A stretch of 36,559 nucleotides of DNA. Source: a virus (Duplodnaviria > Heunggongvirae > Uroviricota > Caudoviricetes). The notes below the pieces were generated by a model. That model ran no database searches. It saw only the letters and a list, made by a program, of their open reading frames with translations, and was not told where the DNA came from. The stretch is taken from IMG/VR virus record IMGVR_UViG_2724679237_000007, positions 1-36,559 of that record. The stretch is one strand, 5' to 3'. Shown piece after piece: positions 1-36,559 of the stretch (its first letter is position 1; each line of letters opens with the position of its first letter). A program made the translations under genes and the position numbers.

Positions 1-1170
1 TTGGCACTGAGTGACACTAAACTGCGTAGTCTCCATGGCAAGCCATATTCCGGCCCGGCGGAAATCACCGACGGTGACGGACTAAGCGCGCGGGTTACCC
101 CTACCGGCACTATCTCTTTTCAGTATCGTTACCGCTGGAACGGTAAGCCAGTGCGCCTTACCGTTGGGCGTTACCCATCAACAACCCTTAAAGAAGCCCG
201 TGTGGTCGTCGGTGAGATGCGCACATTGTACACGAAGGGGGTTAACCCAAAAAATTATTTTGCCCGTAGCGACGGCGAACTGACGTTAAAAGAATGTCTG
301 GAGCAGTGGTGGGACAAGTACGTCACTGACCTGAAACCCAATACGCAGACACTGTACAAATCGGTTGTGTACAACACCATGTACACACAGTTCGAGGACG
401 CGCCTGTAGCCAATATTCCTGTTTCGGCCTGGGTACGTTTTTTTGATAAGCAAGAAAGCCTCAATAAGAAAAAGGCGCGTGTGCTTCTCCTGCAGCTGCG
501 TTCCGTCGTTAACTGGTGTATAAGCCGCCAGCTAATCCCCTCATGTGAGCTGCTTAAACTCAGTGTAAAAAATGTTGGTAAAAAACCGGATGTTGGTAGC
601 CGGGTGCTTACTTACACTGAACTGGCAAAAGTATGGCTGGCGCTGGAAAACAATAAGATTGTTTCATCCAATAAAGTGCTGCACCAACTGCTGTTGCTAT
701 GGGGTGCCCGCTTGTCTGAATTGCGTCTTGCAACTGCCAGCGAGTTCAATATGGATGACCTTATATGGACCACTCCTGGGGACCATTCAAAAATGGGGAA
801 TGTTATTCGCCGGCCGGTATTCGACCAGGTTATGCCCTATGTTGAGAGGCTGCTGAATGTTGGTAACGATGTTCTTTTCCCCGGTCAGGAGATGGATAAA
901 GCGATCGACCGCTCATCGGCGAATCTGTACATGAAAAAGCTTAGGGAGAAGATTGATATACCTGAGTGGCGAACGCACGATTTCCGGCGCTCACTTGTAA
1001 CGAATTTATCTGCGGAGGGAGTAATGCCCCACGTCACCGAAAAGATGCTGGGGCATGAGCTGGGAGGGGTAATGGCGGTGTATAACAAACATGACTGGCT
1101 GCCGGAGCAGAAAGAGGCGTACGAGCTGTATGCTGATAAGATTTTTTGGCATGTCAAACAGCTTGATTAA
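1..1170 (+). CDS. int: Tyrosine recombinase, phage integrase (P4-like family)
   Basis: 389 aa ORF. N-terminus MALSDTKLRS...GDGLSARVTPTG matches the P4-type integrase arm-binding region; C-terminal HDFRRS...VYNKHDW carries His/Arg and Tyr catalytic residues. Begins at window position 1 with TTG, so the true start and att site may lie upstream. Confidence 0.85.
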   Translation: MALSDTKLRSLHGKPYSGPAEITDGDGLSARVTPTGTISFQYRYRWNGKPVRLTVGRYPSTTLKEARVVVGEMRTLYTKGVNPKNYFARSDGELTLKECLEQWWDKYVTDLKPNTQTLYKSVVYNTMYTQFEDAPVANIPVSAWVRFFDKQESLNKKKARVLLLQLRSVVNWCISRQLIPSCELLKLSVKNVGKKPDVGSRVLTYTELAKVWLALENNKIVSSNKVLHQLLLLWGARLSELRLATASEFNMDDLIWTTPGDHSKMGNVIRRPVFDQVMPYVERLLNVGNDVLFPGQEMDKAIDRSSANLYMKKLREKIDIPEWRTHDFRRSLVTNLSAEGVMPHVTEKMLGHELGGVMAVYNKHDWLPEQKEAYELYADKIFWHVKQLD

Positions 1171-2733: not shown

Positions 2734-3769
2734 ATCCTGCGCATTCCATAAACGAGCGGATGAATGTAGCGGCAGCTGGCGCGACTATCGCGTTGCCGTA
2801 GGCGCGCAGTCGTCCCACTCTGCTGGTAATCCCATGAGCCAGCGGGAATGTGCCGGGTTCAACTGGCCGCCAGCGACCATCCCGGCAGAGGAGCCAGTCA
2901 GCATCATCCCAGCTGCCGCTAATCGTATTGGGCCACAGATTCTCGCTGCGCCGCCGAGAGTCGTTCCCCGTTCGGTATGATTGGCTGCGGCTCCCTCTCC
3001 CCGAACCCGGTTGTTGTCGATCGTCGTCACCGTCGGCCATCCACTCAGGCAGGCATAATCCTGTAAGTTCGGTTGTCGGCCCGCTAAGGTTTCCAGACCG
3101 CGCTTTGTCTCCGGCTGTGGATTGGTGTTGCAGGTTGGCGTGTACCATCCCGCCAGGTGGGCAAAGTCCCTCAGGGAGCTGTGCAAGGGGTTGCCGGATG
3201 GTCGACGATCTCCAGACATTTTCCTCAATGCTATTGAGGCGCTTCCGCCACCACTGTGATCGGTCGCCGCTGGAGTCGGCCACCCAATAAGCTCTGTCTC
3301 GGATATGCGGGGCACCGACGCCCGCAGCCGGAAACGGGACAAGCCCAAAGGCGTAGTCCACTGCTTCCACGTCAGTTTGTACAAGATCGAACCAGGCATT
3401 GACTCCCGCAACCTGTTCGCCAAATACCAGCTCAGGGCGTCGCTCGCTGATGAGGTGGAAGAAGGCTGGCCAAAGGTGCCGCTCGTCAGCAAACCCATTT
3501 CCTTTGCCTGCCGCGCTGAAAGGCTGGCAGGGGCAGGAGCCTGTCCAGACCGGGCGAGCGTCGGGCCATCCTGCCAGACGCAGGGCGTAAGACCAGACGC
3601 CGATCCCGGCGAAGAAATGGCACTGTGTAAAGCCTCGCAAGTCGTCTGGTGCGACATCCTCGATACTCCTCTCGTCAACTTCACCAGGGGCGATATGTCC
3701 CGCGGCAATAAGGTTACGCAGCCATTGCGCTGCGTTCGGGTCTATTTCGTTGTACCAGGCTCCCCGCAC
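2720..3769 (-). CDS. DNA (cytosine-5)-methyltransferase
   Basis: 349 aa with FAGIGV (motif I, FxGxG) and PCQPFSAAG (motif IV, catalytic Cys). No cognate restriction endonuclease is visible nearby. Confidence 0.8.
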
Positions 3770-4123: not shown

Positions 4124-4339
4124 TCATTCTTTAACCGCCTTACGCTTGTCGCGCATGTTCTGCATCAGGCAGAAGTCATTCCGCCGTTCGCTCCAGTCCT
4201 GGTTAAGTTCGTTGCGTGATTCGCGGTTGGCTTTCGCCCAGACCTTCGCCGCCCGGTCGTATTCGCCGGATTGTTCAAGGCGCATAGCTTCCTGCGCGGA
4301 ACGGTAATACAGCGGGTTATCCCGGTATTTAAATGCCAT
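4124..4339 (-). CDS. Small regulator-like protein (ANR-family-like, hypothetical)
   Basis: 71 aa ORF, tightly packed after the upstream gene (stop 4346, start 4339). A decayed paralog lies at 4617..4754. Confidence 0.5.
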   Translation of the reverse strand: MAFKYRDNPLYYRSAQEAMRLEQSGEYDRAAKVWAKANRESRNELNQDWSERRNDFCLMQNMRDKRKAVKE

Positions 4340-4345
4340 AGTGAT

Positions 4346-4570
4346 TTACCTTTTTTCGCTCCAGCCTCGCCAGGCGGAGCCGATGCCGTTCTGACCGGGT
4401 GCATGCCCGATGTGCCAGCCGTGGCAAAACGGGCATCTGTAATTGTGGATATGCCCCTGATGGCCTTTTTTGCGATGAAGTATGCGTATCGCGGCTACGG
4501 CCTCCTCCGCGCTGGCGTAGCGGATTTTGGCTCCGCATTGCTTACGCCGCAGGTTTCGTTTGCTTGACAT
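4346..4570 (-). CDS. Small Cys/His-rich (zinc-binding?) hypothetical protein
   Basis: 74 aa; ATG at 4568-4570 with AAGGGAG RBS; C...CPFCHGWH motif. Confidence 0.5.
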   Translation of the reverse strand: MSSKRNLRRKQCGAKIRYASAEEAVAAIRILHRKKGHQGHIHNYRCPFCHGWHIGHAPGQNGIGSAWRGWSEKR

Positions 4571-4616
4571 GTGATTAACTCCCTTCGGGGCTAAGCGAAC
4601 GGATGCTATCCGGATT

Positions 4617-4754
4617 TAATCGGCGTTGCGTGATTCCCGGTTGGCTTTGGCCCATACCTTTGCCGCCCGGTCATACTCGCCAGCCTGCTCAAGGCCGCAT
4701 AGCCTCCCGCGCAGACCGGAAATACAACGGATTGTCGTGTTTTTCGAATGACAT
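4617..4754 (-). pseudogene. Frameshifted, truncated paralog of the 4124..4339 gene
   Basis: About 75% nucleotide identity to 4205..4340 by eye. Reads MSFEKHDNPLYFRSAREAMRP then stop; a single extra C (aaggccgcatag versus aaggcgcatag) breaks the frame, and the C-terminal third is missing. Confidence 0.55.
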
Positions 4755-4771
4755 AGGGGATTACCTCAAAT

Positions 4772-4806
4772 AAAAAACCCCGCGGTTGCAGGGTTTTTAT
4801 TTTTTA
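4772..4806. terminator. Bidirectional rho-independent terminator
   Basis: AAAAAACCC-cgcggttgca-GGGTTTTTATTTTTT: GC stem flanked by an A-run and a T-run, so it can terminate on either strand; lies 16 bp downstream of the TIR-like gene stop. Confidence 0.65.
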
Positions 4807-4821
4807 AGGAAAAATGATTGA

Positions 4822-5583
4822 TTAAGAGGAAGCGTTAGCTATTTGAGCTTGTGTAAATTCAAAACCTGAATGCTGTAACCGTTGCACCAGTCGAGGAACA
4901 GTTTCTCGTACATGGTCGTTGAAGTTCAGATATAAAATTCCGTTAGCATCAGAAGGTTGTTCTAAATGTTGTTTCTGCAAAATAGCTACGTTACTGCGCC
5001 CTAAGGACGAAAGAAGCATACCCATCTCGAGCACAACATTCTGTCTTGCACGAGGCTGGATTTCAGCTTCACCGGCGCGCTTTGAGTACCCCATATCGTC
5101 AGGTGTGAGAAGCACAATCCCGAATCGGGTAGCTGTTTGCCCCTGACCGATTTCACGTTCCAGCTCTTCAATAATTGTGAGCCCAGTCCCGCCAGTATTC
5201 TGCAAAATGAAATGGTCTGGCAACCCGAGTTTATGGAGTATTAGCTCAAGTTGTTCCTTTGCCGCATGATCATGGCCGTGAACAATGAAAATCTTTTTTG
5301 GAATCTCAGCAGGTTGTTCAACAGATTGAGGTGCCGCTGCGGGTGGCGTTCCTAAATGGGCCATTATTGCAGATTCAACATTGGGGCGTTCTTGAGGGTT
5401 ACCCTGAAGCTGAATAGTACGGGTAGCGTAAAGGTTAACAATTACACCATTCGCTAAACGATAGCAGTCACAAGCCCCACGCTGTTCATGGTCAAAATTG
5501 GTGAACCCGCACTCCCTTAAAAAGTCAGGAAATGATTCTCTTGGGTGTGGATAGGTGATCGGCATTTCAGTTAGTTCCTGCAT
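4822..5583 (-). CDS. TIR-like (Rossmann, nucleotide-binding) domain protein with an uncharacterised N-terminal domain; candidate defense effector
   Basis: 253 aa. C-terminal half KKIFIVHGHDHAAKEQLELILHKLGL...GIVLLTPDDMGY...ARQNVVLEMGMLL matches the prokaryotic TIR-like / SLOG-type pattern (vFIvHGhd...LTPDD). N-terminal ~80 aa has no family I recognise, followed by a Pro/Ala linker. Clearly lower GC than flanking genes. Confidence 0.6.
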   Translation of the reverse strand: MQELTEMPITYPHPRESFPDFLRECGFTNFDHEQRGACDCYRLANGVIVNLYATRTIQLQGNPQERPNVESAIMAHLGTPPAAAPQSVEQPAEIPKKIFIVHGHDHAAKEQLELILHKLGLPDHFILQNTGGTGLTIIEELEREIGQGQTATRFGIVLLTPDDMGYSKRAGEAEIQPRARQNVVLEMGMLLSSLGRSNVAILQKQHLEQPSDANGILYLNFNDHVRETVPRLVQRLQHSGFEFTQAQIANASS

Positions 5584-5647
5584 TAATATTGTTCCTTTAA
5601 TTTACTCGAATTCAGCATATCGACATAGCTCTATAAAGTGAGCTATA

Positions 5648-7711
5648 TCAATCTTTTCTGTAGTGGTACGCCTCGAAGCCGCCAGCGTTCAGCGGGATGT
5701 CGGGCGCCCATTCGGGGTTTGTGGAGAGCAGCGCGGAAAGCGCCGTATCGTTGAAATCGTCGGTGTCCGGCGCTTCGGTGATCACCTCATCGTGTACCGT
5801 CAGCACAATGCTGTAACCGGCATCCTCGATCAGCGGCATGTTCCCGGCCAGAACGTCGCGGGCGGCCGCCTGGGTGACGTTTTCCGCGAGCTTGCCGGAG
5901 TAGGTTTTAAGCCGTTGCCATTTGCGCGAGTAGGAATTAACGCCCCGGTAGGTGATGTCGCCGTCCTCGATCGTCGGTGACGGATAACAGACCGCGCGCC
6001 CGGACGGCAACTGGATGCGCAGCCAGGCACCATCGCGCCGGACTTTCAGATAACCACAACACAGGGTTCTTTTCGGGGTTGCAATGGCGGCGCGAACGGT
6101 GCGCTCAATCTCGTGCCAGAAATCGCAGGTAGCTGGGTGCGCCCGGCGCCACAGGCGCTTTAGCGAGTCACAAGCGATAAATACGCGCTCCGACAGTCCG
6201 TAGGTTACTTTGCGTTTGACCGATTCGTCATACCAGCTTTTCGCCTCGTGGATCACCTCACGGGGGATATTCGGCAGCGCGGCGTTCGCCAGTTCGTTGA
6301 GGTCGAGGCCGTAAACAAGGGCGAAGGTCAGGAATGCCGCGACGCCTCCGCCATATCCTAACCCGAGTTCCATTACTTTGCCGATCTGACGCTGGTATTT
6401 ATCAACATCGTCCGGCGAGATATTGAAGGCACGGGCATAGGCCAGTTTATACAAGTCCGGGCCGGTGCCCTCGTCGTACTCACGGAACGCGTCCAGCTTC
6501 CACTGTTCACCCGCCAGCCACGCCAGCATTCGCCCTTCGATATTTGACAGATCGCTAACCACCAGCTTTTTGCTTTCCGGCGCCATGATGCAGCCGCGTA
6601 ACGCTGAACTGGTCAGTTCCATGATGTTATTGAACAACAGATCGGCACATCCGGCTTTCAGGGCGTCGATACCGAAGTCTATTTGCTCCTGCGGCAGCGT
6701 TGGCCGACTGAGGTTTTGCGGCTGAAACAGCCGGCCCGCCCAGCGCCCTGTTCGTGATGCCCCGCAAAATTGCAGCGTACCGCGCAGGCGCCCGTCGTGG
6801 CTGACGCCTTTTATCAGCGTTTTGTATTTGCTGGTGCTGGTCATACTGGCCTGTAATCGGATCGCCAGCAGTTCTTTGACCGCCGGGGGTAAGTCCGGGT
6901 CGGCAATGCGGCGTTCGAGCGTCGATTTCTGCATGTCCGGCAATATCACGCCGTAGGATTCGACGATGTGTTTTAGCATGGCGTCGCGCTGTGTGGCCGC
7001 CTGGACTTCGCCGCCGGTCATTGCCTGCGTGCGTTTTGCCAGGCGCTTTTGCTCCTGGTCTACCGCTTCGACGGCCGCGTGCGCGAGCTGCACATCCATG
7101 CAGGCGCCACGGTCGTTAATCCGCTGGTCGCGGTGCCAGTGCGCCAGCTCGGCTCCCTGATAGTTCCACTTTGGCAGGCGCTTATGCACTTCGCGCATGG
7201 CCTCGATATCCAGCCCGGCGTATGCAACGAACCGCCGCCACTCTTCCGGGTGCGTTTTGCTGGTGGCCCGGCGCAGTTTGCTGTTTTTCGGTCGAGGCTT
7301 GCAGAACAGCTGGATTAGCGCCGTACCCCCTTTATCCTTCGCTTTGTCCTGCGGAACGCCCAGCACTTCACACAACGCGCCTAATGCGCCGGGGAGTCCG
7401 TGCGCCAGCGCCTGCACCATAGTATCGCGCCAGCGGGTGATATCGGGTGCCAGTTCCGGCATTGCATGGCGCAGCACCGTGCGGTCGAAATGTGAATTGT
7501 GCGCCCATACTTCTACCTCCGGTTTTTTGAGCGCGAGACGCAACTCCAGAGGTATTTTTTGGGTTTCGGTTAAGTCCCACACTTGTACGGGGGCGTCGTC
7601 GAGCGCCCAGGCGAACAGCATAACCTCGGCACCCTCTGAATACGCATGGGTCCCGTTTTTTATCGGCACTTCGGAGAAAGTTTCGAGGTCGAGATAAAGG
7701 CGTTTAGACAT
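5648..7711 (-). CDS. Family A DNA polymerase with 3'-5' exonuclease (T7 gp5-like)
   Basis: YLDLETFS (Exo I), [14 protein letters not shown] (motif A), [16 protein letters not shown] (motif B), VLTVHDEV (motif C). ATG at 7709-7711 has a GAGGTGG RBS; the track ORF starts at an upstream GTG (7726). Confidence 0.85.
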
Positions 7712-8201
7712 GGGGCCACCTCGCACCGGAAATAATCATACCCACCGCACGTCGTGATATTCCGTACCTACGACCAAGTTCAGTTTGTGAGACTGAATCG
7801 CCCAGCGTTTTTATCTCCCGAGCGATGGCCTCTGTAATTTTTGCCATTCCATTCTTTTCACCTCTATTATCGGGAAAAGTCAGGCGACCATTGCGAGCGA
7901 CTCGCTTCATATTTTCCTGACGGTCAACCCATTCAAGATTGCCGACGGTATTGTTTCTCTTGTCGCCATCGAGATGGTCAACTTCTGGTTTATTTTTGGC
8001 CGTCGGAAGAAAAGCAGTTGCGACTAGTCGATGTACAAATATGTTGCGAGAGATGCCGTTATCGCATAGCTTCGCATGCAGATACCCGTCTCTGTGTTTT
8101 GACGGTTTGAGAATGTGGTGGTGGATATTTCTAACTCTTCCCAAATTGCTGACCTCGTAACGGTCTTCAAATCCGGGTGCAGGTTTCCAAATTTCGGGCA
8201 T
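7704..8201 (-). CDS. HNH homing-type endonuclease (NUMOD4/HNH_3-like)
   Basis: [15 protein letters not shown]-terminal motif and [14 protein letters not shown] core. Start chosen at ATG 8199-8201 (GAGGA RBS, 6 nt spacing) rather than the track start at 8246. Confidence 0.8.
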
Positions 8202-9205: not shown

Positions 9206-9883
9206 CTACTCGGGCATCCAGAGCGACGATTTAGCGATCCCGGCAACGTACTGGATATGTACCACCTGGTCTTTTTGCAGGCGAACAGGTAAGTGATTTT
9301 CGTTGACAGGCATCAAGTGATAAGCCCCGTCGCGTTCGAACAAAAAAACCTTCACCATCACTTCCCCCTGCGCAGTGACCACCAGCACTTCATCTCCGGG
9401 GGTATAGCTATGACCAGGTTCGATGATGACGTACTCACCTTCTTTAATCCGGGGCATCATCGAGTCCCCCACGCATTTTAACGCGTAGGCGTTCTCGTCT
9501 TGCGAAGGCCAGTGTATATACCCGTCCCCGCTTCCTACCGGGTATTGCATTTCGCTCCAGTAACCGCCATGCCCAAGCTGGGTATTTCCCAAAACAGGAA
9601 CTCCTCTAAACCGTAAAGTATCGGGTTTCCCCGGGACGGAATGTTGTTGCTCCCCAGTCTTCGGCATGCTGGTTTCCATCAAATCGGGGACGCTTACCCT
9701 AAAAAAATCAGCTACCTGCTTTATGAGCGGGTACTTCGGTTCTTTGTTTTCCCCTGAAAGCAGCCTGTGCATGGTGGGCTGCGGAATGCGTATCTGCTTA
9801 GCCAGTTCGGTCACGTTTGGTATGCCGCGTTTCGCCATTAAGTAATTGATATTTGAAATAAGTTTTTCAGTAGTAAAGCCCAT
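9206..9883 (-). CDS. cI: CI-like repressor (HTH + S24 LexA-like peptidase domain)
   Basis: 225 aa; N-terminal HTH (NVTELAKQIRIPQPTMHRLL) and C-terminal S24 peptidase motifs (GDSMMP Ser, downstream Lys); divergent from the Cro-like gene. Confidence 0.85.
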   Translation of the reverse strand: MGFTTEKLISNINYLMAKRGIPNVTELAKQIRIPQPTMHRLLSGENKEPKYPLIKQVADFFRVSVPDLMETSMPKTGEQQHSVPGKPDTLRFRGVPVLGNTQLGHGGYWSEMQYPVGSGDGYIHWPSQDENAYALKCVGDSMMPRIKEGEYVIIEPGHSYTPGDEVLVVTAQGEVMVKVFLFERDGAYHLMPVNENHLPVRLQKDQVVHIQYVAGIAKSSLWMPE

Positions 9884-9912
9884 AGCGATACCTGTGGATT
9901 CGGGTTATTCAA

Positions 9913-9988
9913 GACTGAATATTCTATACTGAATATATTACGCTGGTATTGCATTCATTATTGAATTATTATTGAATTCAATAATGAA
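9913..9988. promoter_or_regulatory. Operator region of the cI/cro switch
   Basis: Direct repeat ACTGAATAT x2 (9913-9940) and a long inverted repeat ATTCATTATTGAATT / AATTCAATAATGAAT (9953-9988) in the 130-bp divergent intergenic region. Confidence 0.5.
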
Positions 9989-10013
9989 TTTACAACCTTT
10001 GAGGATATGACAT

Positions 10014-10214
10014 ATGCGAACGCTGACCCCAAAAGAAATCATCGCGTCGCTGAACGACACAGGGCTTACGCAGGTAGACATTAAGAACCGGACCGGTATC
10101 AGCCAGGCTTCAATTAGCCGTATCGCGTCAGGTAAAAATAGGGACCCGCGTTTTTCGGTTGTTCGTGCGCTGGAAGCCTTGTATCAGGAAGTGACCGAAA
10201 CGAAAAAGGCGTAA
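10014..10214 (+). CDS. cro: Cro-like HTH transcriptional regulator
   Basis: 66 aa; first gene of the rightward operon opposite cI; HTH-like TGISQASISRIASGK; GAGGA RBS. Confidence 0.65.
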   Translation: MRTLTPKEIIASLNDTGLTQVDIKNRTGISQASISRIASGKNRDPRFSVVRALEALYQEVTETKKA

Positions 10215-10217
10215 CCC

Positions 10218-12521
10218 ATGGAAATACGCTATTCAACGGGGCAGTACGCCAGAGACGCCAGGCCTAAGCCGGGTATCTGTAAGAGCTTTGGGTCGTTCTA
10301 CTGGACGGTGCGTGGCCTGCGTCGGGCCATTGGCATCGAGCCAGAAGATACGCCGAACCAGATGCGTATCAAAAAGTCCCGTCTGCCCTATATCTGGCAC
10401 TCAATGCGGGATGTTGCAAACGGACGTAATGCGCTCAATGCTGGCGATCGCGATGCGCTGTTCCTCGATATGGACGGCTGCGACGAACCCACATGGCAGG
10501 CGCTGCGCAATGCGCTAACTTGCTTTTCCTGCTTCACCTACTCAACCCCCAGCCATCTGCACCCTGCCGTAAACGGCGAGCAGCGCTGGCGTATCTGCTT
10601 TGAGCTTGATCGCCCTGTTACGCCCGAAGAATACAAACGCCTTGGCCCGTCGCTGGAAAACTGGCTGATAGACTGTATCAGCCTGCTGGACGACTATGCC
10701 GTTAAGTGGGATCAGTCTGTCTATAACCCCGACCACATGGTTTACGGGCCTGACGAAAGCGCAGTGTTCGAGTGTTTCGAGGGGTCACCTGTCACCGTGG
10801 ATATTCTGCTGGCCAGCACAACGGAAATTACCTCACCTGAAAAAGCGCCGTCCGTTGACCACGATGATTTGTCGCGTGCTGTCGATCTGAACGGCATCAG
10901 TCACCAGACCTTCGACGACCTGCGCGAGGTGATGTGGCATCCGGCTGTGCTGGCTGACGCCCGTCCGAAAAGTGAGAAGCATGACGCATGGGCATCGATG
11001 GGGAATCGTCTGGCATGGTTCAAAGGTACCGACTGGGAAGATGCCGCGCGGCAACTATGGATCGACTGGTCAACCGCAGGCGGCGGCAGCGAAGAAGATA
11101 TCGCGGTAGCTGAAACGCGCTGGGATGAGAATAAGCTGAAAGCAGACCGTACCGGTTACCAGGCTATTTTTGCCCATGCGCAGAAATCTGGTGTCGCTAA
11201 CCCGGCGGTTGACCGTCTGCGTGGTTCTGTTGCCAGCGTGGACGATTTCGACGATTTGACAAATACCGACATAGCCGAGCCTGCGCCGTTACCGGCTTTT
11301 CGTAGAGATAATAAGGGAGACATCGAAGCGATCCTTGATAATGTTGTGCTGGCTCTGATGCGTCCGGATTTTACGGGTGTAGCCATACGCTACGACATAT
11401 TCAGGGATGCGCTTATGCTGGCACCGGCGGAAACTGATGGCTGGCGTGCTTTCGGGGATGAGGATTATAGCGAGCTTCGGATACTGCTTTCTCGTCGCAG
11501 TTTTAAAGAAGTTAGTAAAGAGTTGATGCGTGATGCGGTGTTTACGGTAGCAAAACGGCAGCCGTTCGACTCGGCGACAACCTGGCTGAACGGGCTGGAG
11601 TGGGACGGCGTGCCGCGCATCGAATCTTTCTACCATACGCACTTTGGTACCGCTGATACGACGTACACCCGGGCGGTGTCCCTGTACATGTGGACGGCGC
11701 TGGCGGGCAGGGTGCTGGAGTCCGGCGTTAAAGCTGATATGGTGCCGATCCTCGTCGGCGCTCAGGGACTGCGTAAATCAGCTGGGATTGCAGCTCTTTC
11801 GCCAGATCCGGAATTCTTTGCCGATATTTCGTTTGCTGATAAAGATGACGACCTCGCGCGCAAGATGCGAGGCTGTTTAGTCGCGGAGATAAGTGAGTTG
11901 CGTGGCCTGAACACAAAAGATCTTGAGTCAATAAAGGCATGGGTAACGCGAACCCACGATAAATGGGTTCCGAAATTTAAGGAGTTTACGACCATCTTTG
12001 CTCGTCGTGGTATTCCTTTGGGGTCCTCTAACGAAGATGAATTCCTCGCGGATAAGACCGGTAACCGCCGCTGGTTGCCTGTAGACGTCATCAACATGGT
12101 TGATACAGATGCTATTAAGCGCGATTTACCGCTGCTGTGGGCGGAGGCCCGCGAGACGTTTAAGCGCCTCGGCGGCATCCAGTTCCGCGATGCTGAGCGC
12201 CTCGGCGCAACTGTCCACGAGCAGTACACCATTAAGGACGCCTGGCTCGAAACGGTCGAGAAATGGCTCGATACCCCTGACCTGATGACTAACGACATTC
12301 CGCGAAATTGCGAATTTTTACGCGCAAGCGACGTTTTACGGGAGGCGATCGGCCTTGACCCGCGGAATATCGGAAAGCGTGAAGAAATGCGAATTAGCAA
12401 TGTTTTGCAAAATTGCGGTTATAAGCGCGAAACACGACGTGTTGAAGGCAAGTTAATGAAGGTTTGGATAGCAGCGTTACCACCTGTTACCACCTGTAAG
12501 GGCAAGGTGGTAACAAATTAA
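10218..12521 (+). CDS. DNA primase (primase-polymerase-like N-terminus with VirE/P4-type P-loop C-terminal domain)
   Basis: 767 aa; C-terminal ILVGAQGLRKSAG (Walker A) and VirE-like region; lies between cro and the iteron array. Confidence 0.7.
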   Translation: MEIRYSTGQYARDARPKPGICKSFGSFYWTVRGLRRAIGIEPEDTPNQMRIKKSRLPYIWHSMRDVANGRNALNAGDRDALFLDMDGCDEPTWQALRNALTCFSCFTYSTPSHLHPAVNGEQRWRICFELDRPVTPEEYKRLGPSLENWLIDCISLLDDYAVKWDQSVYNPDHMVYGPDESAVFECFEGSPVTVDILLASTTEITSPEKAPSVDHDDLSRAVDLNGISHQTFDDLREVMWHPAVLADARPKSEKHDAWASMGNRLAWFKGTDWEDAARQLWIDWSTAGGGSEEDIAVAETRWDENKLKADRTGYQAIFAHAQKSGVANPAVDRLRGSVASVDDFDDLTNTDIAEPAPLPAFRRDNKGDIEAILDNVVLALMRPDFTGVAIRYDIFRDALMLAPAETDGWRAFGDEDYSELRILLSRRSFKEVSKELMRDAVFTVAKRQPFDSATTWLNGLEWDGVPRIESFYHTHFGTADTTYTRAVSLYMWTALAGRVLESGVKADMVPILVGAQGLRKSAGIAALSPDPEFFADISFADKDDDLARKMRGCLVAEISELRGLNTKDLESIKAWVTRTHDKWVPKFKEFTTIFARRGIPLGSSNEDEFLADKTGNRRWLPVDVINMVDTDAIKRDLPLLWAEARETFKRLGGIQFRDAERLGATVHEQYTIKDAWLETVEKWLDTPDLMTNDIPRNCEFLRASDVLREAIGLDPRNIGKREEMRISNVLQNCGYKRETRRVEGKLMKVWIAALPPVTTCKGKVVTN

Positions 12522-12643
12522 CTGTATGAAATTTAAGGGTTGTTACCACCGTTACCACCGTTACCACCTATTACTATATATGTGCGCGTAATATATATAG
12601 GTCAGTTTAGAACTTAGTATAAACAGGTGGTTACGGTGGTAAC
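12476..12643. repeat. Iteron array (GTTACCACC / GGTGGTAAC) flanking an AT-rich core; putative replication origin
   Basis: GTTACCACC at 12476, 12486, 12542, 12551, 12560; inverted GGTGGTAAC at 12506 and 12635 plus variant GGTGGTTAC at 12626; AT-rich tattactatatatgtgcgcgtaatatatatag (12569-12600); A9 run at 12648-12656. Overlaps the last codons of the primase gene. Confidence 0.55.
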
Positions 12644-12679
12644 AGGTAAAAAAAAACTCCCAAAAACAAGGTAAATAGC

Positions 12680-12907
12680 ATGAAAATTTCAGGATTAAAA
12701 AACCATATCGACGGAAATAACGAAGTTGCCTGTCCGCGCTGTGCGAGTAATCAGGTTTTTATTCGCAATGTTGCCATGCGAGCGCATGAAAATGGCGCGA
12801 CGGTAGTAATTAACCTCGGTTGCTCTGTCTGTGATGACAACTTCCAGCTTGATTTATCCGACGGGCCAAACACCAGTGTTAGGGGGCACCTGGAGTTCAA
12901 CGAGTAA
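12680..12907 (+). CDS. Small zinc-ribbon-like hypothetical protein
   Basis: 75 aa with CPRC...CSVC paired Cys motifs. Confidence 0.45.
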   Translation: MKISGLKNHIDGNNEVACPRCASNQVFIRNVAMRAHENGATVVINLGCSVCDDNFQLDLSDGPNTSVRGHLEFNE

Positions 12908-12956
12908 AGCGCAGTAGAAAAATTTTTTTGTAGCAAAACGTAGAGGGCGGTTAATT

Positions 12957-13379
12957 ATGCGCAGAGATATGCAACTTGTTCTGGAGCGGTGGGGGCGGTG
13001 GGCTGCGAGCGAGGAATACTGTTCAATGGTTGACTGGCCCTCGATGTCGGTGACACCTCAACGTGTACCGTTCAGCGGAAAGCCCGGCTGCACCGACGAG
13101 GACGGCGCGGCAATTGACACCTGCATCGCGCATATGAGTATGGTTTGTCCGCATGACGACCTGCTGATCCTTGGCTTACGTTTCATAGGCGGTTTATCAA
13201 CGCGTTCAATCGCCGAGGCAATGCAGTGCAGCCACCTTAGTGTAAGAACGTCCCTGAGGGCATCTGAGGCGTTTTTATCGGGGGCTCTGACCCTGCAGGG
13301 GATCAGACTGGATATGGACTACGAAGTTGCATTACCTGAAAACGTTGTGTGCGCACAAAAACATGTGTTATGGTTGTAG
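12957..13379 (+). CDS. Late-gene antiterminator (Q-like)
   Basis: 140 aa starting MRRDMQLVLERWGRWAA, resembling the conserved N-terminus of one Q antiterminator family; sits directly upstream of lysis and virion genes, followed by a terminator. Confidence 0.55.
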   Translation: MRRDMQLVLERWGRWAASEEYCSMVDWPSMSVTPQRVPFSGKPGCTDEDGAAIDTCIAHMSMVCPHDDLLILGLRFIGGLSTRSIAEAMQCSHLSVRTSLRASEAFLSGALTLQGIRLDMDYEVALPENVVCAQKHVLWL

Positions 13380-13406
13380 CGTCTGGAATTGTATTCCGAC
13401 TTCTGA

Positions 13407-13440
13407 AAGGCTCCACTAACCCCGGAGCTTTTTTCTTTTC
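13407..13440 (+). terminator. Rho-independent terminator (candidate tR'-like)
   Basis: aaGGCTCC-actaacccc-GGAGCTTTTTTCTTTT immediately after the Q-like gene. Confidence 0.55.
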
Positions 13441-13773
13441 GCCTTCCTGGGGAAAAGTTAATAAAACAGGGCTTTCGCTGCGAAAAAACGCTATGCAATT
13501 TGCACCCTGTTTTATGCACGATTTATTCACTCGTTTTTGTCCGTTTCGGACCACTTAACCCGCGTAAATACGTCATTCGCTGCAATCCGGCGGCGAGTGC
13601 CGATCGCGTGGTTCTTAATGTACATTATGTTAAATAAGGCCATTTTTTAACAAATTATCACCGTAGTCTACGGTTCGTCCGCAGGTTTGGCCATTGCCGG
13701 GTAGTGCAATATTTCCACTCACATTTTTCACATAACGGCCCGGCGTTCGCGTCTGCTGGCCGGGGATATTTAT

Positions 13774-32580: not shown

Positions 32581-32859
32581 TTATTAACCCGCTTTAATTT
32601 ATTGCCGACTGAAAACTACGTCCTGTGGGCGTGGTCATCAACAGGCTTTGGCTCTGCCTTATTGTCTTTGGATTTAAATTTACAGAATAGGCAGAGACTT
32701 CTTTTTAAGTTTTTTTAGTACGCCCCTTTGGGGCGAAACCAATGCCGCCTTCTTAGAAGGCGGATTTTTACTTCTCCTGCATTTAGCACAATTTTAATTG
32801 CCACCAACTACCGCCCGCCATTCTGGCGCTGGCGGCGCTTTGTCATAAAGAGAGACGCA

Positions 32860-35466
32860 ATGACAGTATCATCCGAAGTAAACCACAATGATTACCAAGG
32901 TAACGGGACGACTACCGTTTTTCCGTACCAGTTTCGTATCTTCAAAAAAACTGACCTGGTAGTAACCACCTCTGATCTTAATGACACTCTGACTACGCTG
33001 CGCCTGGATACTGATTATACAGTAACGGGGGCTGGTGGGTACAACGGCGGGACGGTTGTTCTTCCGTCACCACTGTCTTCTGGCTGGAAAATATCCGTGG
33101 CCCGCGTTCTTTCGATTACGCAGGAAACCGATCTGCGCAACCAGGGTAAATTTTTTGCAGAAGTGCATGAGAACGCATTCGATAAACTGACAATGCTGAT
33201 TCAGCAAGGACTGCGCTGGATTGGCCTGGCATTGTGCAAGCCGTCAACTATTGCTAATTATTATGATGCACAGGGTAATTATATCCGCAACCTGCATGAT
33301 CCGGTACAGCCACAGGACGTGGCCACGAAGAACTATGTGGATAATACAGTCGCTACGTCTACTGCTGGCTGGCATGCTGGTGATGAAGTGCTTGACCAGA
33401 AAATAGATGCAAACTTTGCTCACACGCTACGGGTTCCTGAAAGCAGCATTAATATGCTGGGGAGTGTATCAGATAGAGCAAATAAGCTGCTTGCGTTTAA
33501 CAGTAGCGGCCAGCCGATTTCTGTATTGCCGGAAAGCGGAAGTGCTACGGATGTGATGATTGAACTGGCTGCGGATGATGGCGCATCTAAAATTGGTGGT
33601 GCATTCTACGCCGATATCAGGGCCTACAACGCTGGCGGAAATCAAATCAAATGTCTGGGACGTACAAATATTTTTGACGGTGCAGATGGTGTGTTTATTC
33701 TTGACCCCTCTGATGTTGTATCACAGGATAACGACGGAACAGTTCTTGTAGATACAAATGGCGGTCGTTGGAAAAGGGTGTTTGATGGTCCGTTGAATGG
33801 GTTATGGTTTGGGATGGACAGGGGGGGGGCAAAAAGTTCCGGGGATGCTTTTAATAAAATATTGTCTGTTTCTGGAACTTTTGGGCAAATATTTATCCCT
33901 GAAGGGGTTTATTTATTGCCAGGTGGACACGATGTTCAAGAAGGGCAAAATATTTTATTTGACAATGTAACTTTAAAATCAGATGGAAATGCTGCAACAA
34001 CTAGTTTAATTAATATTAACGCTGATGATGTTTCAATTGGTGGCAGCTTGATAATTGATGGGGAAGTGAGAGATCCAGGAGAGAACCCTCCACGCATTGC
34101 TATTGGGCTAAGAGTTGGAGAGCAAAGACAAATTGAACGCTTCAATTGCGCCGGGGTTAAATCTTACGGTGTCGTGTATGGTGTTTTTATTACAGGCGCG
34201 AAAGATTCAACAATAAAAAATTGTCTGTCATACCGGAACTCAGACGGTTTTAGGTTAGCTTCCGTAACTTCAGGAGTTGCAAATTCATTCGGATGCGATA
34301 ATGTCAGGATAATTGATTGCATCTCCTTGGAAAACGGCATGCCATATATGCCTGTTACAGGAACAGGATCGACCGGGGGATATGCTGGATTTAAAGTTAC
34401 TGACATACCAATTTCTGATATATATTTCATAAATTGCATTGCTCGTGGTAACTGTGGGTTTGGTTTTAATATTCATGGCCATCCGTTCACTTCAATACCA
34501 AGTGGGTTTGAAATGAAAGGTTTGCATTTCATAAACTGCATATCAGATGGTAATAACATACCAGAATTTAATCTACCATCTGGATTTGTTACTGGAGCTG
34601 GAAATTGTAGTGGTTTCTATATTGGAGCGGTTGGTGTAGCAATCAAAAATGTATTTATTGATGGGTGCACTATCAAAGGACAATCTGGAGAAGCCATATA
34701 CTTCAGGGCTTTAAATGATAGCGGTTCTAATTTGAATCTAATTGAAAACATATTAGTTTCAAATTGCAGGATTGAAGGTGCTCCGAGATCACTAAATAGC
34801 AGCGTCAGAACTTCTAACTCAGCTCTTTATTTAACAGGCACGAGAAACTTGCTCTCTCAATCAAATGTTATCACTGGAGTTGAGTATCTTTATGATTTTG
34901 TTTATTATATTAATAACTCTAGGAGTGGAGTTAAGATTAAAGATGATCAGTATGACACCTCTCCTAATTTAATTTACGCTAAATCTTCAAAATTAGGAGG
35001 TGTTGTTGGGCGTATTGATATATCTGGTATTCAAGCAAGAAAGGGTGGGAAATTAAATAGTGCAACAGCCAATGTAATGATTAGGGTTGTCGATTTTGAG
35101 GAGATAATAATAGAAGGCAATAGTATCAATGATGTATCAGAAACACAATCATCTACTTTGGTAAATGCGATATTGCAACAAAATACAACTACTGATAGTA
35201 AATCAATCAAGATAATCAATAATTCATTTTCATGTGCAAATTCTAGTGTTCGAATTGGGGCACCAATAGAGATTAATTCAATAGGTGGATCAAAACTATT
35301 TAGTGGTAACACTATAACGCATTCAATAGTTGGTATTTCAGGGAACAACACTGAAAACGCAATAATCATTGCGAATCATTTTGATGCCGGAACAGTAGCT
35401 ACAAAAATATTAAATTTCCCAGCAAGCACAATTAAAAAAGCAAACATTGGACTTCCTGACAGTTAA
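32860..35466 (+). CDS. Tailspike / tail fibre with a conserved N-terminal particle-binding domain and a beta-helix (depolymerase-like) C-terminal domain
   Basis: Start at ATG 32860 (AAAGAGAGA RBS). N-terminus MTVSSEVNHNDYQGNGTTTVFPYQFRIFKKTDLVV...NYVDN is the widespread enterobacterial podovirus spike anchor; the C-terminal ~560 aa has repetitive Gly/Asn-rich beta-helix character and markedly lower GC. Confidence 0.8.
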   Translation: MTVSSEVNHNDYQGNGTTTVFPYQFRIFKKTDLVVTTSDLNDTLTTLRLDTDYTVTGAGGYNGGTVVLPSPLSSGWKISVARVLSITQETDLRNQGKFFAEVHENAFDKLTMLIQQGLRWIGLALCKPSTIANYYDAQGNYIRNLHDPVQPQDVATKNYVDNTVATSTAGWHAGDEVLDQKIDANFAHTLRVPESSINMLGSVSDRANKLLAFNSSGQPISVLPESGSATDVMIELAADDGASKIGGAFYADIRAYNAGGNQIKCLGRTNIFDGADGVFILDPSDVVSQDNDGTVLVDTNGGRWKRVFDGPLNGLWFGMDRGGAKSSGDAFNKILSVSGTFGQIFIPEGVYLLPGGHDVQEGQNILFDNVTLKSDGNAATTSLININADDVSIGGSLIIDGEVRDPGENPPRIAIGLRVGEQRQIERFNCAGVKSYGVVYGVFITGAKDSTIKNCLSYRNSDGFRLASVTSGVANSFGCDNVRIIDCISLENGMPYMPVTGTGSTGGYAGFKVTDIPISDIYFINCIARGNCGFGFNIHGHPFTSIPSGFEMKGLHFINCISDGNNIPEFNLPSGFVTGAGNCSGFYIGAVGVAIKNVFIDGCTIKGQSGEAIYFRALNDSGSNLNLIENILVSNCRIEGAPRSLNSSVRTSNSALYLTGTRNLLSQSNVITGVEYLYDFVYYINNSRSGVKIKDDQYDTSPNLIYAKSSKLGGVVGRIDISGIQARKGGKLNSATANVMIRVVDFEEIIIEGNSINDVSETQSSTLVNAILQQNTTTDSKSIKIINNSFSCANSSVRIGAPIEINSIGGSKLFSGNTITHSIVGISGNNTENAIIIANHFDAGTVATKILNFPASTIKKANIGLPDS
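33821..33829 (+). repeat. G9 homopolymer inside the tailspike ORF
   Basis: ggatggacaGGGGGGGGGcaaaaag, coding DRGGAK; lies at the GC-composition junction of the gene. Confidence 0.9.
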
Positions 35467-35473
35467 GTTACTA

Positions 35474-35524
35474 CAAGCCCCACTCACACAACGAATTAGT
35501 GGGTGGGGCTTGTACTTATTTTTT
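35474..35524. terminator. Bidirectional terminator between convergent tailspike and acyltransferase genes
   Basis: CAAGCCCCACTCAC-acaacgaatta-GTGGGTGGGGCTTG followed by tacttaTTTTTT; overlaps the acyltransferase stop. Confidence 0.6.
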
Positions 35525-36559
35525 AACTTTCGATAATAACCTTGCTAAAAGTAATGGGATTGCGATTGCAGAAAATGGATATAATAATTGGGTGTAAAAA
35601 GTATGGTAATGAACTAGAGTTTTAGTATTTCTCATGTCCCATAATCCAAATAACGAAAAAATCATGTCGAGGAATACAAATATACATAAATGATATGACA
35701 TTATTCCTCGCGAATACTTTCCTGCATCCTTTAAAAAAGTTGATAAATAAGTTCCATTAAATACAGAGGAAACAAAAAAAATTAGTAGTATGCATAGTAG
35801 AGCCATAATGGTTGTAACAACAAATCCTGATGGATATGCACTCCATGACATTATCATTGGTTTTGCTAGGCCAGATAAATATAATGATAAAACCAAGATA
35901 AATAAAATTAAAGCGATAATTTTATTTTTAAAATGTAAGATAAATGAATTGATGCAGCACCCGATCAGCATAAACATGGTGGCATATAGAACTTGAGACG
36001 TTAAGTTATATATCTGTTCACCTGTGATTTTATATATATCGGCCATGATGGTTGTAGATACGTATCCAAAACATATTGATATTGCAATTATTGTAATTTT
36101 TTGTGTTTTAGTATCTTTTATTTTTAATGACAATGAAATAATTATAGTTGATATAATGTTTGACAATAGGTATGCAAAAAGAAACCATCCAACTAAAAAC
36201 AATTCATTGTTATGGAAGTTGTTTTTGAATATTGATATTATTGTTTCAATGGGGTGTTCTGAAAATGGTAACCCAAACCCTATTCCATATATCTTAGATA
36301 TGCCAACGGAAACCATGCCGATTATTAAATACGTAACAATAAAATACATGATTATTTTTGAAAGTGTTTTTTTTATGGTTTTGAATGGGGTGATTCCATC
36401 AATAAAAAAACCACCCACAAAAAAGAATAAAGGCATATGATAAAAGTAAGGTTTGGTAATACCAACTAATATCCCCCAACTATGGCCGATAACCACAGCG
36501 ATAATCCCAATTCCTTTTACAATATACAAAGTGTCACTTTGCTCTTTAGTCAGTGTCAC
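35516..36559 (-). CDS. Acyltransferase family 3 integral membrane protein (O-antigen/polysaccharide acetyltransferase-like); N-terminus at or just beyond the window edge
   Basis: 347 aa, about 10 predicted TM segments; N-terminal VKGIGIIAVVIGHS matches the acyltransferase-3 signature; very low GC (roughly 28%); convergent with the tailspike. Confidence 0.75.
   Translation of the reverse strand: MTLTKEQSDTLYIVKGIGIIAVVIGHSWGILVGITKPYFYHMPLFFFVGGFFIDGITPFKTIKKTLSKIIMYFIVTYLIIGMVSVGISKIYGIGFGLPFSEHPIETIISIFKNNFHNNELFLVGWFLFAYLLSNIISTIIISLSLKIKDTKTQKITIIAISICFGYVSTTIMADIYKITGEQIYNLTSQVLYATMFMLIGCCINSFILHFKNKIIALILFILVLSLYLSGLAKPMIMSWSAYPSGFVVTTIMALLCILLIFFVSSVFNGTYLSTFLKDAGKYSRGIMSYHLCIFVFLDMIFSLFGLWDMRNTKTLVHYHTFYTQLLYPFSAIAIPLLLARLLSKVKK

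Follow-up and report, generated by a model that had tools for sequence, protein, structure and literature searches.

A probable PriRep-type replication origin at the 3' end of the initiator gene in an APSE-like prophage of Escherichia albertii

A DNA stretch of 36,559 bases (positions 1 to 36,559 of the IMG/VR virus record IMGVR_UViG_2724679237_000007, called the window here) carries an array of 9-bp iterons next to the gene of a 767-aa replication initiator. Very probably, the array serves an APSE-like temperate podovirus, present as a prophage in Escherichia albertii, as its lytic replication origin, which would be of the self-loading PriRep type first known from staphylococcal pathogenicity islands. 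A sequence-only reading of the same DNA had suggested a putative origin beside the initiator gene, and the present analysis supports this prediction. The initiator is homologous to Rep1 of the Staphylococcus aureus pathogenicity island (SaPI) SaPI1. The position and layout of the array resemble those of the origins of SaPIs and phage-inducible chromosomal islands (PICIs). The arrangement is conserved in about 95 loci, and the iterons co-vary with the wing of the C-terminal domain of the protein. A SaPI origin is located directly downstream of rep. It contains 6–12 short iterons around a roughly central AT-rich region, with two or more on each side and the two sides oppositely oriented (PMC9371898, PMC6092414). 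The same organisation is found in the PICIs of E. coli, and a pri-rep-ori segment was able to maintain a plasmid in the case of EcCICFT073 (PMC6092414).

The repeat array

The iteron GTTACCACC was located by reading the sequence and by a pattern search. Its exact direct copies on the plus strand start at 12476, 12486, 12542, 12551 and 12560. Two exact inverted copies (GGTGGTAAC, minus strand) lie at 12506–12514 and 12635–12643, and an inverted copy with one mismatch (GGTGGTTAC, minus strand) lies at 12626–12634. The five direct 9-mers and the three inverted or variant copies of the sequence-only reading were all recovered in their places. All of the seven exact copies fall inside 168 bp (12476–12643), and the pattern search of the whole window gave no further exact copy. 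The expected number was 0.15, and none of 100 window shuffles reached seven. When up to one mismatch was allowed, 22 copies of the 9-mer were seen in the window against 5.9 expected.

The copies are grouped as two modules, which are a distal module, [> > <], and a core dyad (Table 1). The upstream open reading frame (ORF) ends at 12521. Therefore, the first three copies, which form the distal module, are within its last 15 codons. The earlier observation that the array begins in the last codons of the primase gene, with the first copy at 12476, is borne out. The array as a whole is directly 3' of the rep ORF, which is the position of the SaPI and PICI origins. In the core dyad, three direct copies and two inverted copies are opposed around a 57-bp spacer with 74% AT, and at least two iterons are thus present per side as in the same origins. 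The spacer takes the place that the AT-rich centre has in them. A GC core, GTGCGCG, is found inside the spacer, together with a purine/pyrimidine alternation of 16 nt, TATATATGTGCGCGTA, at 12575–12590. The 32-bp AT-rich segment previously described (12569–12600) is indeed AT-rich, but it is only the left part of the 57-bp spacer. The A9 tract, which had been described as flanked by the copies, is placed outside the array and is not conserved in the relatives. It is probably not a part of the origin core.

The initiator protein

A protein of Escherichia albertii named 'ATPase' has exactly the sequence of the 767-aa protein (100% identity). The P3 proteins of APSE-1 to APSE-8, which are Hamiltonella phages, are 56–57% identical to the 767-aa protein. 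Pfam detected only a VapE-like domain (aa 457–656, E 2.7e-53). The phmmer search against the PDB gave a single match, 7pds, with an E value of 2.7e-26 over aa 383–687. This entry is the cryo-EM structure of SaPI1 Rep1 with DNA (PMC9371898). No family was found in Pfam and NCBIfam for the first 340 aa or the last 100 aa, and the typing of these parts came from structure prediction. The AlphaFold2 model was built from 36 homologues and has a mean predicted local distance difference test (pLDDT) score of 74. Foldseek aligned the model with nearly the whole of 7pds (E 9e-14, target-normalised TM-score 0.58). The N-terminal 200 residues matched primase-polymerases of the archaeo-eukaryotic primase (AEP) type, among them cyanophage S-2L PrimPol (6zp9, E 2.7e-4) and the LigD polymerase. 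This match fits the invariant D84xD86 and H115. The domain matches and the folds together therefore define the protein as a fusion of primase, superfamily 3 (SF3) helicase and winged helix, the 'PriRep' architecture known from SaPI5. The N-terminal domain is a predicted primase, and it is fused to the helicase as SaPI and PICI initiators have their primase fused or adjacent. The C-terminal winged helix of these initiators is also present, with fold matches that are individually weak.

In the AlphaFold2 model, the winged helix consists of a helix (703–711), a recognition helix (720–732) and a beta-hairpin wing (735–742/745–752), and the invariant G744-K745 is located at the wing tip. The iterons encode the tail that follows (aa 753–767), which is disordered, its pLDDT dropping under 50 at residue 756 and beyond. 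The sequence-only reading had assigned the origin to the 'primase'. This is right for the product of the adjacent gene, but the name understates the fusion, and the predicted reader of the repeats is the C-terminal winged helix rather than the primase domain.

The same SF3 and winged-helix body (73–87% identical) is joined to two different N-terminal primase domains, as seen in a comparison of window 10218–11240 with P0041–P0117 from Klebsiella, Enterobacter and Salmonella prophages. The N-terminus in the window is the Pfam-less AEP domain and that of many relatives is a PF09250 Prim-Pol domain, with the shuffling at about residue 340.

Conservation of the array in homologous loci

The homologue set was composed of 17 loci (one genome per species), 80 IMG/VR loci and the annotated phages APSE-1, APSE-3 and Yersinia YeP5. 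The relatives came from a protein-level search. At the nucleotide level, phage genomes had no megablast match to the primase-origin region. A common layout at the 3' end of the gene is shared by about 95 homologous loci, which range from Enterobacterales to Nitrospiraceae. It reads [>> <], about 25–35 bp, [>>(>)], spacer and [<<(<)], and a further module follows in some loci. The left arm of the core is formed by 2–3 contiguous copies in the relatives. In essentially every locus an 8–10-mer is strongly over-represented less than about 300 bp from the stop codon, and nearly all of the occurrences of each locus's word within the 5–10-kb locus fall near the stop codon. The layout is kept at a protein identity of 27–45% in Nitrospiraceae, Nitrosomonadaceae, Crenothrix, Methylophilaceae, Geminicoccaceae and Acidobacteria. 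Five loci (L011, L014, L018, L019 and L020) are without the C-terminal-domain sequence motif needed for automated extraction. L011 and L012 resemble pseudogenes, and L018–L020 still have arrays. The position of the stop codon varies between 8 nt ahead of the array and 45 nt inside it. Considering this variable position and the disordered tail, the last residues of the protein are a by-product of reading into the repeats.

Of 90 loci, 64 have a central spacer of 57 bp, and the length stays between 55 and 58 bp in 81. Such a constant length fits a fixed geometry between two complexes. The purine/pyrimidine alternations of the central spacers (loci examined beside the window, L020 5305–5372 and L017 3536–3615) are unusually long, and they extend over 12–16 nt in most representatives. 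In one Methylophilaceae locus the alternation is 55 nt of (CA/CG)n, and the spacer there has only 41% AT. The conserved property of the spacer may be this alternation, which is Z-DNA-prone or easily unwound, instead of AT-richness.

The iteron word varies among the loci, and at least 11 classes were distinguished. Besides GTTACCACC of the window and the words paired with a wing sequence below, GTATCCACC, G[T/A]AGCCACC, TGCCATACC, TTCCATACC, GTTCCCAC and GTTCCACGT were found. Most of the iterons have a common 3' part, C-[C/A]-ACC, and a variable 5' end. The exceptions are GTTCCCAC, GTTCCACGT and the CCATACC cores.

APSE-1 (L102, NC_000935) has ten exact copies of GTAACRACC, all of them at 3310–3601 and none elsewhere in its 36.5 kb. 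In the RefSeq record, a coding sequence for a hypothetical protein, 'P4' (3445–3666), runs across the AT-rich spacer and the inverted iterons of this array. Due to this overlap, the ORF is probably spurious. The array of APSE-3 (L003, LR794150; 4715–5030) is a mix of two iteron variants, GTACCAACC and GTAACAACC. Compared with APSE-1, its (TA)n tract is expanded and a further module (two copies of GGTTGTTGC and one of GGTTGTTAC) follows downstream. Within the APSE group, the probable origin is still evolving. Homologous genes were also found in 103 of 5426 complete E. coli genomes, where they are always annotated only as 'VapE domain-containing protein'.

The wing of the C-terminal domain follows the iteron class

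Among the Enterobacterales homologues, the C-terminal domain hardly varies outside the region of the hairpin tip. The five residues that follow the invariant G744-K745 correspond nearly one to one to the iteron class. LMKVW is paired with GTTACCACC, MTR[IV]F with GTACCAACC, K[CS]K[VIL]W with GGAACCACC, KMRIF with GTCCCAACC and QIRVW with TAGACCACC. QQR[VI]F or QTRVW is paired with TAGACAACC, VQRVW with GTAACCACC, and SQRVY or VCRVW with GTAACAACC, the word of APSE and Xenorhabdus. The QTRVW wing belongs to a Nitrospiraceae protein that is 45% identical to that of the window. Among 78 non-identical proteins, the normalised mutual information with the iteron class is 0.82 for L746 and 0.74 for M747, the top values of 460 columns. 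The codons of these two residues are upstream of the first iteron, and therefore they are not encoded by the repeats.

The area under the curve (AUC) for 'same iteron class' was calculated over all pairs, with classes assigned by simple word counts and identical proteins removed; these pairwise values ignore phylogeny, and many of the IMG/VR loci are close relatives. The AUC was 0.98 for the wing (744–750) and 0.85 for residues 738–743. Lower values were obtained for the helices of the C-terminal domain (0.72), the N-terminal domain (0.63) and the ATPase domain (0.61). The first ORF downstream of the array gave 0.59 and the Cro-like gene 0.52. This downstream ORF is as near to the array as the wing is, yet it does not track the class.

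Individual pairs of loci illustrate the same tendency. Compared with the window, L024 has 93.5% identity in the ATPase and 96% in the helices of the C-terminal domain, but only 38% in residues 738–750, and its iteron is GTACCAACC. In contrast, L027 is 77% identical in the ATPase and 100% identical in residues 738–750, and it has the same iteron GTTACCACC. One single-linkage cluster of ATPases (at least 90% identity) spans eight iteron classes. Similarity in the sequence of the central spacer goes with the ATPase lineage (Spearman 0.73) rather than with the wing (0.34), for example between the window and L024, L004, L027 and L040. This suggests that the spacer is matched to the helicase or primase body and the iterons are matched to the wing. 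Since the spacer follows the ATPase and the repeats on both sides of it follow the wing, the repeats changed with the wing and the spacer stayed. Taken together, these data are strong in silico evidence that the repeats are read by the winged helix at the C-terminus of the protein itself.

A further possibility, to which we give an even chance, is that 2–5 wing-tip residues constitute a natural recognition code. Within one helicase lineage (ATPase identity of at least 90%), all of the about eight iteron copies would switch in concert with these residues, and at least 11 mutually orthogonal initiator/origin pairs would exist in Enterobacterales prophages. The switch took place without replacement of the spacer between the iteron sets, which argues for concerted co-evolution rather than a cassette swap. 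If such a code is real, orthogonality would act as a replicon 'immunity' against origin firing or hijack among co-resident prophages and satellites. In addition, programmable origin/initiator pairs would be available ready for use. The wing and iteron pairs listed above are directly testable predictions of initiator specificity, and they are the part likeliest to interest specialists.

Proposed mechanism

All of the sequence-level features of SaPI and PICI origins were found together with the homology to Rep1, and the following mechanism is proposed on this basis. The 767-aa product would assemble SF3 hexamers, which would recognise the 9-bp iterons through their C-terminal winged-helix domains. 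The two halves of the iteron are probably read by different parts of the domain, the invariant C-[C/A]-ACC half by the near-invariant recognition helix and the variable 5' half by the variable wing residues after G744-K745 (L746, M747 and neighbours). The direct and inverted copies face each other across the 57-bp spacer, so two hexamers in mirror orientation are envisaged, docked on the three direct copies (12542–12568) and on the two inverted copies (12626–12643). The two hexamers would melt the AT-rich alternating spacer and then unwind outward, giving bidirectional replication. Priming would be carried out by the protein's own AEP domain and extension by the family-A polymerase (PolA) of the phage. 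The distal [> > <] module (12476–12514) may serve as an auxiliary binding site, into which the last codons of the gene merely read. We infer the binding, the double-hexamer geometry, the spacer melting and the origin function, and the steps after iteron recognition are modelled by homology.

Points against the origin and rival explanations

Several points weigh against the array as the replication start. One precedent for another role is crr of the satellite phage P4. In the P4 record, crr (4291–4590) comes right after the alpha gene (4636–6969, minus strand) and has direct and inverted type-1 repeats. From this equivalent position crr is required in cis and binds alpha through its iterons, and replication starts at a separate ori 4.5 kb away (about 9.1–9.8 kb). 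The array might therefore be a crr-like cis replication enhancer or control site, not a start site. However, an exact-copy search revealed no second cluster of the 9-mer in the complete prophage or in APSE-1, which leaves the protein without another site to act on. The protein also has no BLAST similarity to P4 alpha. It is a homologue of SaPI1 Rep1, and in that system the array downstream serves as the origin (PMC9371898). A crr-like role is considered unlikely. Another point is that the cumulative GC-skew minimum is near 9.5 kb and not at 12.6 kb, and the APSE records place a 'putative origin' in the cI-cro gap (APSE-3, 2166–2266). The skew minimum coincides with the divergent cI/cro transcription switch, and the GC skew was considered uninformative. 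The skew tool originX is the sole source of the APSE-3 annotation. This annotation rests on the same strand-switch signal, and therefore it was not counted as evidence against the array. The cI-cro gap was rejected as an origin on this ground, and in the window it has ordinary operator-like palindromes and no 9-mer.

The Walker A motif of the window protein adds a further doubt. It is GAQGLRKS (aa 514–521, window 11757–11780), with R519 in place of the canonical glycine (GxQGCGKS) found in 28 of 36 homologues. Helicase activity is not guaranteed with such a non-canonical motif in the window lineage. The arginine variant is present in eight sequences from five genera with the linked changes CLVAEISELRG and PLGSSNEDE, which indicates a conserved sub-lineage and not a lesion. 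Lastly, the co-variation of wing and iterons could in principle result from co-inheritance of neighbouring DNA. A joint change of wing and repeats around an unchanged spacer is not predicted by simple hitch-hiking of adjacent DNA.

The array could alternatively be an operator or roadblock that controls read-through of the early operon (cro-primase) into the Zn-ribbon gene and Q. The primase-helicase or another protein would be the binder, and this role could coexist with that of an origin. The array is placed between the early operon and Q, and arrays covered by protein are able to block RNA polymerase. On the other hand, no sigma-70-like promoter or intrinsic terminator was predicted in 12000–13500. 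The downstream gene is often unrelated in the relatives, and neither this gene nor the Cro-like protein co-varies with the iteron class, as the AUC values above indicate. The operators of the CI/Cro type have a different sequence and are located in the cI-cro gap, and a dyad with an AT-rich spacer is the anatomy of an origin. The operator role is thus distinctly unlikely. A structured element, formed either as a hairpin in the early RNA or as a cruciform in the DNA and kept by selection for base-pairing instead of protein binding, is a very improbable reading of the array. The strand does fold far better than its shuffles (–36.5 kcal/mol, z = –5.45) and the dyad arms are 91–95% complementary. 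But each arm is made up of a single 9-mer repeated in tandem, and extra copies of the same orientation lie upstream; pairing needs neither. The copy numbers of the arms are unequal (3 against 2). In L004, the arm variants are uncompensated, since the left arm has three copies of GTACCAAC[T/C] (CAAC) and the right arm has three reverse-complemented copies of GTACCCACC (CCAC). The Rfam search gave only sub-threshold noise with no family near the threshold, and a terminator T-run is absent.

Prophage context

The window is a complete APSE-like temperate prophage of Escherichia albertii, and it is called APSE-like because of the 56–57% identity of the initiator to APSE P3. Its genes are listed in Table 1 after the features of the array and of the initiator. 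The phage carries its own AEP primase domain and PolA and is probably replication-autonomous. The ORFs scanned included no genes of the lambda O/P type.

Table 1. Features of the array, the initiator gene and the remaining prophage, in window coordinates.
Feature	Position	Strand	Remarks
Distal iteron module [> > <]	12476–12514		GTTACCACC at 12476 and 12486 (+) and at 12506–12514 (-); within the last 15 codons of the gene
First spacer	12515–12541		27 bp, 78% AT; includes the stop codon 12519–12521; parts the distal three copies from the central triple
Left arm of core dyad	12542–12568	+	three contiguous direct copies of GTTACCACC, 9-bp period
Central spacer	12569–12625		57 bp, 74% AT (window 48%); predicted melting site (DNA-unwinding element)
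Right arm of core dyad	12626–12643	-	two contiguous inverted iterons, GGTGGTTAC (variant) and GGTGGTAAC
A9 tract	12648–12656	+	outside the array; between the array and the ribosome-binding site of the next gene
Gene for 767-aa PriRep-type initiator	10218–12521	+	AEP primase / VapE-like SF3 ATPase / winged-helix fusion
N-terminal AEP primase-polymerase fold	about aa 1–200	+	invariant D84xD86 and H115; followed by a helical linker
VapE-like SF3 ATPase	about aa 380–690	+	
C-terminal winged helix	aa 703–752; codons 704–752 at 12327–12473	+	predicted DNA-binding
Codons L746-M747	12453–12458	+	predicted specificity determinants; best predictors of iteron class
Integrase	1–1170		
SNF2-type helicase, C5 methylase, then TIR-domain protein	between integrase and family-A DNA polymerase		
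Family-A DNA polymerase (PolA)	5648–7726	-	followed by HNH endonuclease
S24 CI-like repressor	9206–9883	-	
Cro-like protein	10014–10214		
75-aa Zn-ribbon protein, antiterminator Q, holin, endolysin	downstream of the array		in this order
Small and large terminase (TerS, TerL), portal, major capsid, tail proteins, tailspike, acyltransferase	rest of the window		in this order
Tailspike/fibre gene	32728–35466		
Acyl_transf_3 gene	35516–36559	-	

Three other regions of the prophage attracted attention. The cI-cro gap (window 9900–10000) has operator-like palindromes such as TCATTATTGAATTCAATAATGA and repeated ACTGAATAT words, which are unrelated to the 9-mer iterons. The TIR protein of 253 aa (window 4822–5583, minus strand) has a domain of the CAP12/Pycsar-effector type (E 2.6e-31) and lies in a local GC dip of the early-left region. 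The gene is probably anti-phage defence cargo. In window 33500–36559, the GC content drops from about 55% to about 30% over the C-terminal part of the tailspike/fibre gene and the acyltransferase gene. The drop suggests a recently acquired module for receptor binding and O-antigen modification.

Significance

APSE phages are toxin-carrying phages of aphid defensive symbionts. This study locates a probable origin for the APSE phage family and for a very common group of Enterobacterales prophages. In the current records the region is blank, covered by a hypothetical ORF (APSE-1 'P4') or passed over for a skew-derived 'putative origin' elsewhere. The PICI-type origin design was called satellite-only in 2018. 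Its probable use by complete phages as well bears on the source of satellite replicons. No published description of the array was found in the literature on APSE/VapE and iteron origins; the 1999 APSE-1 paper was not covered by this search, and a prior mention is possible.

Comparison with known systems

The layout had been described as the classical one of phage and plasmid origins, and this description has to be revised. The lambda origin with its O protein and the iteron plasmids (RepA, pi, TrfA) are similar in having repeated initiator sites beside an AT-rich unwinding region and an origin near or overlapping the initiator gene. However, their initiators are not helicases and must recruit DnaB. 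Their layout is also different, since they have direct iterons of 17–22 bp with the AT-rich region at the end, and the array here is of the dyad-symmetric PriRep type. A lambda-type (O/P) origin was rejected because no O/P-like families were found among the ORFs scanned and the array is dyad-symmetric and mostly intergenic. An iteron plasmid origin, with phased direct iterons of 17–22 bp, DnaA boxes and AT-rich repeats at the end, was rejected likewise, as the iterons here are 9 bp long, contiguous and in opposed sets. Plasmid origins of this kind usually have DnaA boxes. In contrast, no DnaA box with up to one mismatch was found between 6407 and 23894, and there is none near the array.

The large T antigen of SV40 and the E1 protein of papillomavirus offer an analogy, which was also drawn in PMC9371898. 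They are SF3 helicase-initiators with their own origin-binding domain, and they act as double hexamers on short inverted repeat sets beside an easily melted region. The origin-binding fold and its position are different in these proteins, and the system described here has a C-terminal winged helix and bacterial hosts.

The alpha protein of P4 (777 aa, against 767 aa here) is also a fusion of primase, SF3 helicase and C-terminal DNA-binding domain. P4 has short iterons (TGTTCACC) in direct and inverted orientation, and the crr iteron cluster is directly downstream of the gene. The cis regions of P4 are two and separated, whereas a single array is present here and in APSE-1, and P4 crr is a 120-bp direct duplication rather than a dyad around an AT-rich spacer. 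Homology to P4 alpha was rejected, with a best BLASTP E value of 3.7. A P4-type pair of ori and crr was rejected too, because there is only one cluster in the window and likewise in APSE-1.

The SaPI/PICI group (SaPI1 Rep1, SaPI5 PriRep5, SaPIbov1 and EcCICFT073) is the closest. Common to both sides are a self-loading hexameric helicase-initiator, predicted here, with a C-terminal winged helix and a fused or adjacent primase, an origin, likewise predicted here, right 3' of rep, and short iterons arranged as two opposed sets around an AT-rich region. Allelic specificity between elements is probably shared as well, and the ATPase is directly homologous to SaPI1 Rep1 (7pds). There are also differences. 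The iterons here are 9 bp long and contiguous, and SaPIs have repeats of 5–6 bp (PMC9371898). An extra distal [>> <] module lies over the gene end, and the spacer length is strongly conserved at about 57 bp. The carrier is not a satellite but a complete temperate phage, which has its own genes for the virion, for lysis and for a polymerase. A PICI, which is a helper-dependent satellite, was rejected as the carrier in view of the full virion gene set and the 57% identity of the primase to APSE P3. With its virion, lysis and integration genes and this identity, the element is therefore a phage, and only the replicon type is shared with the PICIs. Judged by the homology of the helicase core and by predicted function, the replicon is a Pri-Rep-ori of the SaPI/PICI type in a full phage. 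The origin design itself is already known from the SaPIs and PICIs, and here it is found, unannotated, in a complete phage.

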